Positions 43,723 to 48,383 of a stretch of 64,000 nucleotides of DNA are shown here, piece after piece. The position numbers and the translations under genes are program-made. The DNA is taken from NCBI RefSeq assembly GCF_053078305.1, contig NZ_CP166879.1; one strand, 5' to 3'. The number at the start of each line of letters is the position of its first letter. Within the stretch, counting starts at the first letter, position 1. Under the pieces are notes generated by a model. The model worked only from the letters and a program-made list of their open reading frames with translations, was not told where the DNA came from and did not search any database.

Positions 43723-44787
43723 TTAACTGTATGCATGCAGCGTACGTTGGCAAAGTGCCGAACGTACGCAATCCTCTTTACCGAACCGGACGATCCCGAC
43801 CATTTCATCTTCTTCGAAACGTTCCAGCGCGTCACTTAATCCGGAGCACACGCCGCGAGGCAAATCGCATTGCGTGATATCACCGTTGACGATAACCGTC
43901 ACGTTCTCCCCGAGGCGGGTTAAAAACATTTTCATTTGCGCGGCAGTCACATTCTGCGCCTCGTCAAGAATGACGACTGCATTTTCAAAGGTACGTCCAC
44001 GCATATAGGCGAACGGCGCAATTTCCACCTTCCCTATTTCCGGTCGCAGGCAGTACTGCATAAAGGAAGCCCCTAAGCGCCGGACCAGCACGTCGTAGAC
44101 CGGGCGAAAATAGGGAGCAAACTTTTCTGCGATATCTCCAGGTAAGAAGCCAAGATCTTCATCGGCTTGCAGAACTGGACGGGTGACGATAATCCTGTCG
44201 ACATCCTTATGTATCAGGGCCTCTGCCGCTTTTGCTGCGCTGATCCAGGTTTTTCCGCACCCGGCTTCGCCCGTGGCGAATATCAGCTGCTTACTCTCAA
44301 TAGCCTTCAGATAGTGCAATTGCGCTTCATTTCGCGCGAGGATGGGCGAGGTATCGCGACTGTCGCGGGCCATACCAATGGCTTCTACGCCGCTCATCTG
44401 CACAAGCGAGGTGACCGATTCTTCTTCACGCTGCTTATGGCTGCGCGAATCCCGTCTCAGCACACGTTTTGCCTCGCGACGAGCTTTGATCACTGCTTTT
44501 TGTCTTCCCATGGAGAGCACCTTGAGTTGTTTGTATTCATCACACGCGCCGTTGGCAGCGCGATTATGCGCACGAACATCAGAGGGTTGGCTTCCTTGTA
44601 AGCCATAGTTTGCTTTTGGATAAAATGCCGAAAAACGGCTACGCGCACCGTTTACGGCGTCGGTAACACATGAAAAGAAAGGATGAGGTTGAAAATGCAA
44701 AGTGACGAGATGACTACCGGAGGAGAAAACTCCGCGAGTGGTGGCGCGTTGATTATCTAAAACATGTCCAGTACAGGACGTTACCAT
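43723..44787 (-). CDS. phoH: PhoH, phosphate-starvation-inducible ATPase (354 aa)
   Basis: Walker A GEAGCGKT, PhoH-family core; synteny between pga and efe operons. Confidence 0.85.
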   Translation of the reverse strand: MVTSCTGHVLDNQRATTRGVFSSGSHLVTLHFQPHPFFSCVTDAVNGARSRFSAFYPKANYGLQGSQPSDVRAHNRAANGACDEYKQLKVLSMGRQKAVIKARREAKRVLRRDSRSHKQREEESVTSLVQMSGVEAIGMARDSRDTSPILARNEAQLHYLKAIESKQLIFATGEAGCGKTWISAAKAAEALIHKDVDRIIVTRPVLQADEDLGFLPGDIAEKFAPYFRPVYDVLVRRLGASFMQYCLRPEIGKVEIAPFAYMRGRTFENAVVILDEAQNVTAAQMKMFLTRLGENVTVIVNGDITQCDLPRGVCSGLSDALERFEEDEMVGIVRFGKEDCVRSALCQRTLHAYS

Positions 44788-44936
44788 CCGCGATCTCCAT
44801 AGTGACTGACTATCACTGCCGGGAACTTCCGCTGCTACTTAATAAGTACAACAGATCTCGCATTCATTGCAACAATATATTCACTTATATTTAACTATAA
44901 AACACCATTTTAGTGACATTAGTTTCTACTGGAAAG

Positions 44937-44954
44937 ATGACAGAGTGATGACAG
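44937..44954 (-). promoter_or_regulatory. Candidate Pho box (two CTGTCAT direct repeats 11 bp apart on the minus strand) upstream of phoH
   Basis: Plus strand reads atgacagagtgatgacag = reverse complement CTGTCATCACTCTGTCAT; resembles the PhoB consensus CTGTCATA(A/T)A(T/A)CTGTCA(C/T). Confidence 0.55.
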
Positions 44955-45031
44955 TGATGAAAAAAGCTGTGTGCTTTCAGCAGGATTCACATCAGGCATC
45001 TGCGCACAAATGCCTTATCCGCCTAAAAACA

Positions 45032-46303
45032 TTAAACCCGCAATAATGCGCTTCCGAGATAATCGTTCGCGTCCTTCACTCCCGGCAGCGCAAAAAAATA
45101 GCCGCCGCCGATAGGTTTAACGTATTCCTCCAGCGCTTCGCCATTGAGCCTTTTTTGTACTGTCAGGAAGCCTTTTTCCAGATCGTGCTGGTAGCAGACA
45201 AACAGTAGCCCCATATCCAGTTGTCCGGAGTTGGTGACGCCCAGTGAATAACTGTAGCCACGACGCAGCATCAGGCTGGACTCACTCTCCGCCGTGCGGG
45301 GATTCGCCAGCCGGATATGGCTGTCCAGCGCGATCACCTTCCCTTCCGGGTCGCTGGCGTAATCAGGCACATCATGCTCATGCTGCATTCCCAGCGGCGC
45401 ACCGGTTTGCTTATCACGGCCAAAAATCGTCTGCTGTTCTTTCAGCGGCGTTCTGTCCCAAAATTCCACTCGAAACTGAATCAAGCGTACTGCCTGATAG
45501 CTGCCACCGATTGTCCACGCAGGCTCCTGCTGATCTGCCGTTACCCACACCACTTTTTGCATCAACTTATCATTCTGGCTATCGGGATTGGCTGTGCCGT
45601 CTTTGAAACCCAGCAAATTAATCGGCGTCTCTTTGCCTTTACTACGCGCTGCGTGATCGGAAATAAACCCTTCCCGCTTCCAGCGCACACTGAGCAAATC
45701 CGGCGTGTGTTTGATGATATCGCGCAGTGCATGGATCACCGTGTCCTGGGTGTTGGCGCAAATCTGTAGCAACACATCACCATGACATAACGCCGTATCC
45801 AGCGAGTCGTTGGGGAAACGCGTCATCTTCTGCAGCTTTTTTGGCATCTGTGGCGCAAGGCCAAAGCGCTCATCAAACAATGAGTGACCCACCGATAACG
45901 TGATGGTGAGATTATCGGGCGCAATGTAGCCGCCAAGAATGCCGGAATCGAGTGGTGGCAGGCGCGGATTTGGCGTTTCTGGTGCTGCTCCGCCCTGAGT
46001 CAGAAAAGCAAAACGCTGAGTCAACAAGCGAAACAACCGCTCAAGATCGGCTTTATCGCTGGCAAGCACATCAAACGCCACCAGCATCATTGCGGCCTGT
46101 TGTGGCGTCAGGATCCCTGCCTGATGCTCACCATAAAACGGCTGTTTCTCATTGCGTGCATCCGGTGAAAGCGTGCCCGGTGCACTTTGCGTTTTTTGTG
46201 CATGAGCGACCGGACAACTTCCCGCCAGCGCCAGCGCACCAATTCCTTTCAGTAAACGTCGGCGTGACAGTTCATTCACGCCGTTTTCATCTTCATACTG
46301 CAT
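45032..46303 (-). CDS. efeB: Dye-decolorizing-type heme peroxidase EfeB (423 aa, Tat signal)
   Basis: Twin-arginine signal (SRRRLLKG), DyP-family core; synteny. Confidence 0.85.
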
Positions 46304-47493: not shown

Positions 47494-48324
47494 CTACGCG
47501 GAGCGAGACGCTGTCGCCCCTGCACGTGGTGGCAGAGCAAACGCCACCAGCGCCGGGATGAGATAAATAAACCAGACGGCGACTTCGCTGACGCTCGGCG
47601 CTTCCTGATAACCAAAAATACCTTCCATTAGCGTGCCGAACAGCGAGTGAGTTGAGAGCACCGCGCTCATATCAAAGGCGATTTCCTGAAAGTGGTTCCA
47701 CAATCCGGCTTCATGAAATGCGCGAATGGCACCTGCAGCCAGCCCTGCGGCGACGAAGAGAATAAACAGGCTGGTCCATTTAAAAAATGCACCAAGATTG
47801 AGGCGAATACCGCCCCAGTAGAGCAGGAAGCCGAGCACCACGGCAGTAGCAAGACCGAGCATTGCACCCAGCGGCGGCCAGATCCCGACATCTTGTTGAA
47901 ATGCCGCCAGCAGGAAAAATACCGACTCCAGCCCTTCCCTTGCAACGGCAAAAAAGACCATCATCACCAGCGCCCAGCCATGATGATTTCCACGCTGCAA
48001 TGCGCTATCGACCGCCTGCTCCAGTTGCACTTTGACGTTGCGCGACACTTTGCGCATCCAGAAAACCATCCAGGTAAGGATCACCACGGCGATCACCGCC
48101 ACGATACCTTCAAACAGTTCCTGTTCTTTTTGCGGAAATTCGCCGGTGGTTTCGTTAATGAAGATACCCAAGCCCAGGCACAACGCAGCGGCAAACAACA
48201 CGCCAATCCACATCACACCAATCCATCGGCCTCGCTGGGTACGCTTAAGATAGCTGGCAATCAAACTGACAATCAGCGCGGCTTCAAGCCCTTCGCGCAA
48301 CATAATGAGAAATGGAACAAACAT
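47494..48324 (-). CDS. efeU: Ferrous iron permease EfeU (276 aa), apparently intact
   Basis: FTR1-family permease with two REGLE motifs (MLREGLEAAL, AVAREGLESVF) in one uninterrupted frame. Confidence 0.85.
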   Translation of the reverse strand: MFVPFLIMLREGLEAALIVSLIASYLKRTQRGRWIGVMWIGVLFAAALCLGLGIFINETTGEFPQKEQELFEGIVAVIAVVILTWMVFWMRKVSRNVKVQLEQAVDSALQRGNHHGWALVMMVFFAVAREGLESVFFLLAAFQQDVGIWPPLGAMLGLATAVVLGFLLYWGGIRLNLGAFFKWTSLFILFVAAGLAAGAIRAFHEAGLWNHFQEIAFDMSAVLSTHSLFGTLMEGIFGYQEAPSVSEVAVWFIYLIPALVAFALPPRAGATASRSA

Positions 48325-48383
48325 GCCACCCACCCTTAAACGTTTTTCTGAGTCAATCTATGCAAAGAAAAGTAAATCGCAGT

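Follow-up and report, generated by a model that had tools for sequence, protein, structure and literature searches.

The 18-bp direct repeat CTGTCATCACTCTGTCAT, found on the minus strand at positions 44954-44937 of the window (the whole 64,000-nucleotide stretch of DNA analyzed here), is very probably the Pho box of phoH, from which PhoB drives activation of the upstream promoter P1. The site is already known, from mapping in 1993 and from ChIP-seq, which confirmed it in 2023. The 1993 study, by Kim et al. (J Bacteriol 175:1316), reportedly found the pho box upstream of P1 to be footprinted by PhoB. What is still uncertain is where exactly P1 starts, not what the site is. The coordinates of the box, the promoter elements, and the phoH reading frame are collected in Table 1.

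Sequence, setting, and conservation of the repeat

The window covers the E. coli pgaCD-phoH-efeOB region, and the ORFs around the box are pgaC, pgaD, phoH, efeB, efeO, and efeU. The region matches E. coli strain TUM13936 at 100% identity and K-12 at about 98%, and the box itself is base-for-base the same as K-12 MG1655 1084825-1084842. All 18 bp of the K-12 phoH P1 Pho box are shared, as are the next 33 bp (44936-44904) except for one SNP at 44911; in both loci the box is flanked by efeB on its upstream side and by phoH on its downstream side, and the ATG of the 354-aa ORF is equally distant. At the strain level, the K-12 locus differs in carrying, upstream of the box, a 100-bp REP/BIME copy that is absent from the window. 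The missing 100 bp would follow the efeB stop and precede the Pho box (junction 44988/44987), between two copies of GATGCCTGATG; the longer REP/BIME form is carried by most E. coli genomes, and REP-like sequence is found in the window at ~45024-44990. Over the 90 bp that follow the box downstream, three SNPs relative to K-12 (44911, 44882, and 44865) fall inside or beside the ArcA operator. Further upstream, the 279-aa ORF of efeU (47494-48333, minus strand) is intact, and the gene is annotated as functional in the identical TUM13936, whereas in K-12 it is a frameshifted pseudogene. This strain would be expected to behave like K-12.

Table 1. Position of the Pho box, promoter elements, and phoH reading frame in the window
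Feature	Position	Strand	Description
phoH	43723..44787	-	354-aa ORF starts at 44787; conserved 262-aa core starts at 44511
Pho box	44937..44954	-	Two CTGTCAT heptamers and the 4-bp spacer CACT, 18 bp; PhoB dimer binding site
Upstream half-site CTGTCAT	44948..44954	-	T44953, G44952, and A44949 invariant in 22 species; absent in E. albertii and Escherichia sp. L005
Downstream, promoter-proximal half-site CTGTCAT	44937..44943	-	T44942, G44941, and A44938 invariant in 22 species; kept in all Escherichia examined
Candidate P1 -10 GAAACT	44921..44926	-	Putative; follows the box after 10 nt; P1 predicted to start near 44914
ArcA-P direct-repeat operator	44866..44919	-	Repressor site just downstream of the box; two window SNPs inside
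Constitutive promoter P2	44836..44872	-	-35 TTGCAA 44872-44867, 18-nt spacer, -10 TACTTA 44848-44843, start A 44836

On the minus strand, the box reads in the context ...ttcatcaCTGTCATcactCTGTCATctttcc... and, over a longer stretch, ...ttttttcatcaCTGTCATcactCTGTCATctttccagtagaaactaatgtcac.... Both heptamers are perfect copies of the consensus CTGTCAT unit, and their starts are 11 bp apart, exactly as the sequence-only reading had described them. The classical Pho box consensus is CTGTCATA(A/T)A(A/T)CTGTCA(C/T), with an A/T-rich 4-bp segment between the units. The spacer CACT, with A/T at two of its four positions, is less A/T-rich than this consensus; similarly varying spacers occur in other ChIP-derived PhoB sites, such as CTTT at ugpB and CAAA at yoaI (Fitzgerald et al. 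2023, PMC10294691). The sequence TCATCAC (44960-44954) was considered as a third upstream unit and rejected: its phase is 9 bp, not 11, and it is conserved only in E. coli and E. whittamii.

A single copy of the pattern CTGTCATNNNNCTGTCAT is present in the 64-kb window and none in 100 dinucleotide-preserving shuffles, and we estimate its chance expectation at ~5e-4 (14 fixed bases, two strands, 64 kb). When up to three mismatches to the pattern are allowed, the window yields seven matches versus 5.05 expected; such mismatched matches are close to expectation, so only the exact site stands out. A log-odds matrix built from 58 other ChIP-derived PhoB sites, with phoH's own site left out, gave the box 18.47 bits. 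This score ranks first of ~128,000 positions on both strands of the window, would rank sixth among the 58 training sites, and is reached in one of 200 Markov-1 random windows. The next-best matrix match, GGTAATGACTCTGTCATC (38067-38050, minus strand, 15.3 bits), is antisense inside an 807-aa pgaA-like ORF, and a further match, TTTCACTCCATTGTCACA (49901-49918, plus strand, 13.9 bits), is inside a 447-aa ORF; both were set aside as intragenic sites with no PhoB ChIP-seq peak at the corresponding K-12 positions.

The position of the box is conserved well beyond E. coli. We scanned one genome per species, for a total of 80 Enterobacteriaceae phoH loci, 79 of them usable, and searched 700 nt upstream. 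In ~75 of the 79 species, the best coding-strand matrix match is found 410-428 nt from the PhoH core ATG, and the median score is 13.4 bits on the coding strand versus 8.2 bits on the opposite strand and 4.8 bits in a coding control. Exceptions are found in E. albertii and one Escherichia sp., each with half a box, and at one locus with too little upstream sequence. In an alignment of 22 species, both units keep their T-G-x-x-A(T) core invariant or nearly so, at a distance of exactly 11 columns. The box sequence is CTGTCATCACTCTGTCAT in Escherichia, CTGTTATATTTCTGTAAT in Enterobacter, and CTGAAATAATTTTGTCAT in Citrobacter; phased repeats with differing spacer sequences hold the same position across genera. 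Within E. coli, 5382 of 5426 complete genomes contain a 60-nt segment that comprises the box and the putative -10, and 2970 have it at 100% identity. In seven divergent E. coli, every difference is located outside CTGTCATCACTCTGTCATCTTTCCAGTAGAA, leaving the box and spacer invariant, and in strain 1919D62 the homology ends exactly at the 5' edge of the box.

The number of phased units varies among lineages. Many other genera (loci L011, L014, L020, L029, and others) carry three 11-bp-phased units, for example TTGATATATTT CTGTAATATTT TTGTCAGATGA, at ~410-428 nt upstream of the core ATG, and the best 18-mer corresponds to units 1 and 2 in some species and to units 2 and 3 in others; the third unit is degenerate in E. 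coli (CCAGTAG). One locus (L010, CACSKA010000011.1), titled 'Chryseobacterium sp. 18061', has an Enterobacteriaceae-type phoH locus with a 95% identical protein and is nearly identical to the Citrobacter sp. 18056 locus, so this assembly is probably mislabelled or contaminated. At the other extreme, E. albertii (L009) and Escherichia sp. MOD1-EC7003 (L005) have only the promoter-proximal half-box. Comparing E. albertii with locus L006 (...TTGCTCGCC-A-CTGTCATCTTT versus ...TTGCTCGCC-T-CTGTCATCACA-CTGTCATCTTT), the difference looks like the loss of exactly one 11-bp unit.

Such an apparent loss implies that the repeat can slip, and the local sequence is repetitive (TCATCAC TG TCATCAC TCTG TCATC), both of which would suit a chance or slippage duplication without function. 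The absence of the pattern from all shuffles, the fixed position of the phased repeats in most species, and the binding of PhoB in vivo leave this explanation a negligible probability.

PhoB occupancy and the promoters of phoH

Direct evidence for the Pho box comes from K-12, where a PhoB ChIP-seq peak associated with phoH has its center at 1084845 and a ChIP score of 11 (Fitzgerald et al. 2023, PMC10294691, Table 1), and where the MEME site at this peak is TGTCATCACTCTGTCATC (Fitzgerald et al. 2023, PMC10294691). The peak center corresponds to window position 44934, and the 3' end of the box is 3 bp away, in identical sequence. The same study reported phoH RNA values of 37,076 in the wild type and 13,375 in a phoB deletion (q<0.01), which we calculate to be a 2.8-fold decrease, together with a sigma-70 occupancy at phoH that was reduced by more than 2-fold in the deletion; phoH is one of seven classical operons with both PhoB binding and significant PhoB-dependent RNA (PMC10294691). 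Two papers citing Kim et al. 1993 state that PhoB activates phoH under phosphate limitation and that a second promoter, P2, exists. The sequence-only reading had proposed a PhoB-type architecture and assigned the repeat to phoH as its Pho box, a proposal now supported by K-12 identity, the ChIP-seq peak, and PhoB-dependent RNA; the only PhoB peak of the region sits on the box, and no PhoB-dependent promoter was found mapped elsewhere.

Other literature mentions the site sparingly. The available text and supplements of an earlier PhoB ChIP-chip study do not mention phoH, and in a PhoB ChIP-exo paper phoH appears solely as a RegulonDB target. A literature search with the box sequence gave no match beyond the PhoB ChIP-seq paper, and a search for named phoH promoters returned unrelated word matches only.

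PhoB promoters usually place PhoB where the -35 element would otherwise be. Downstream of the box, 10 nt (ctttccagta) precede the hexamer GAAACT at 44926-44921, and the same 10-nt spacing separates the box from the -10 elements of phoA (TATAGT), phoB (CATAAT), and pstS (TATTTT). GAAACT is a weak hexamer, matching the -10 consensus at three of six positions; across 22 species, the consensus of the block is GAnACT, and its A at 44925 never varies. This block is overlapped in many other genera by a third phased unit, TTGTCAG, and its conservation may therefore not be due to a -10 element. Considering spacing and conservation together, the -10 element of P1 is probably GAAACT and transcription probably starts near 44914, with the center of the box ~31.5 bp upstream of this predicted start.

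The phoH box shares with those of phoA, phoB, and pstS two 7-bp TGTCA-type units, an 11-bp periodicity, the coding-strand orientation, and, probably, a location that replaces the -35 element. It differs from them in its spacer CACT, which is not A/T-rich, and in a much weaker -10 candidate; pstS has two boxes and phoH one. The response also differs in magnitude, with PhoB induction of ~3-fold for phoH versus ~200- to 960-fold for phoA, pstS, and phoB, as computed from the RNA values in Table 1 of PMC10294691.

A promoter scan identified TTTCCA and TAAAAT separated by a 17-nt spacer (44935-44907), with nine of 12 positions matched. The TAAAAT hexamer arises by a G-to-A change at 44911, where K-12 has TGAAAT. 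We rejected this element as the PhoB-dependent P1: its -10 is 24 nt from the box instead of 10, and it requires a strain-specific SNP. It might nonetheless add PhoB-independent transcription, and one could argue that PhoB binds the box in this strain and adds little, with P2 or this strain-specific sigma-70 promoter dominating. PhoB binding is transcriptionally inert at many sites (Fitzgerald et al. 2023, PMC10294691), and the effect on phoH RNA is merely 2.8-fold, as such an arrangement would predict. The scan, however, returned two sites versus 1.1 in shuffles, which is weak evidence for the promoter; phoH belongs to the classical operons with binding and significant PhoB-dependent RNA (PMC10294691), and the box position is conserved across genera, unlike what is expected for an inert site. 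We consider a dominant PhoB-independent promoter unlikely, with a very low probability.

Immediately downstream of the box is the operator of a second regulator of the same family. The ArcA-P operator at phoH, ATGTCACTGAAATGG...TTGCAAT, gave a DNase I footprint that, counted from P2, covers -80 to -21 (Park et al. 2013 supplement). It resembles the Pho box in regulator family, 11-bp phasing, and strand, and it immediately adjoins the box. It differs in having GTTA/GTAA-type repeats, in four units over 54-60 bp, in repressing, and in having no overlap with the box. The proximity raises the alternative that the repeat serves another OmpR/PhoB-family regulator, either as an extension of the ArcA operator or by cross-talk with CusR, BaeR, or KdpE: ArcA-P protects ~60 bp starting ~20 nt downstream of the box, and the repeats are 11-bp-phased. 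Both the ArcA footprint and the predicted repeats (44919-44866), however, stop short of the box; the heptamers are of the TGTCA type, not the ArcA TGTTA element; and PhoB occupancy at the box was demonstrated directly by ChIP-seq (PMC10294691). Another family member as the principal ligand is therefore highly improbable, and PhoB remains the assigned regulator.

The TSS map of Kim D. et al. 2012 contains a sole phoH TSS, at 1084166 (NC_000913.2) with 221 reads. This TSS converts to window position 44836 and corresponds to P2; the P1 start is not in that map. The P2 elements TTGC and TA..A are invariant across 22 species.

These elements can be assembled into a model of phoH activation. Upon phosphate limitation, phosphorylated PhoB would bind the box as a head-to-tail dimer whose two winged-helix domains would each occupy one of the CTGTCAT units, 11 bp (one helical turn) apart. 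The box would fill the place of the -35 element, 10 bp upstream of the weak -10 (probably GAAACT), and PhoB would recruit sigma-70 RNA polymerase to P1, the upstream phoH promoter with a predicted start near 44914. The PhoB-independent P2 would fire ~80 nt further downstream, where the ArcA-P operator overlaps its -35 element. The effect of PhoB on total phoH RNA would be just ~3-fold because the constitutive P2 is located downstream.

The phoH start codon and a candidate structured leader

The distance from the box to phoH depends on which start codon is accepted, and the annotations disagree: MG1655 has a 354-aa phoH starting at 1084992 (window 44787), and PGAP annotates a 262-aa PhoH from 44511, in TUM13936 and even in K-12 TOP10. 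The sequence-only reading had placed the box about 150 bp upstream of the phoH start, which agrees with the 149 nt between the 3' end of the box and the 354-aa ATG; the distance becomes 425 nt if the PGAP start is used, so the value of 150 bp is conditional on the start codon.

Several observations bear on this choice. The start at 44511 has its own invariant Shine-Dalgarno sequence, AAGGTG, at 44523-44518. The 276 nt between 44787 and 44511 evolve unlike coding sequence: among 56 in-frame species, the entropy at the three codon positions is 0.83/0.78/0.78 in the 92-codon extension, which K-12 annotation treats as the N-terminus of PhoH, versus 0.09/0.07/0.77 in the first 276 nt of the PhoH core. 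The reading frame of the upstream ATG is nevertheless kept open. A stop codon is found in this frame within the first 150 nt in 0 of 80 sequences, versus 69 and 80 of 80 for the other two frames; by composition alone, an open frame has a chance of ~0.16 per sequence. The upstream ATG and its GGAG block (44798-44785) do not vary. In 56 sequences (55 species and the window), the upstream ORF shares the frame of the core; in 24 it is shifted, among them E. albertii, another E. coli, many Citrobacter, and Salmonella arizonae and diarizonae. A shifted ORF ends either 22 nt past the core ATG or 23 nt short of it. Taken together, these comparative data cast doubt on the 354-aa form as a conserved protein.

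The leader also displays signs of a conserved fold. A consensus structure derived from 80 leader sequences (loci L004-L083, ~1672-2000) contains 76 pairs, 93% of them canonical, and shifting the 3' partners by 1-3 columns lowers the canonical fraction to 34-49%. Both sides have changed at 24 of the 76 pairs, and the helix 44661-44655/44630-44624 covaries at all seven of its pairs. Folded singly, the E. coli leader gives a z of -1.13, which is not significant, so the case for structure is made by covariation only. An Rfam scan of 44350-45100 returned a noise match alone (BSnc120, E=0.088), and a literature search on the phoH mRNA and leader found nothing relevant.

The pattern of variation suggests a structured leader in which selection acts on translation rather than on the encoded peptide, which makes the leader a candidate new cis-regulatory element. 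We put forward, tentatively and at somewhat less than even probability, a broader proposal: both phoH promoters would feed a conserved structured leader of ~325-400 nt (44836-44512) that exerts an undescribed post-transcriptional control, by translational coupling or as an RNA switch, on top of PhoB and ArcA, and the 354-aa form would be an accident of frame.

The re-identification of the phoH box serves as a positive control, in that reading sequence alone can recover real operator sites. PhoB may no longer control phoH in the Escherichia lineages with half a box, E. albertii and Escherichia sp. L005. The leader could matter more than the Pho box itself: PhoH is an ATPase that occurs widely and has no known function, and a conserved structured, translated leader, if true, would provide a handle on when and how PhoH is made.
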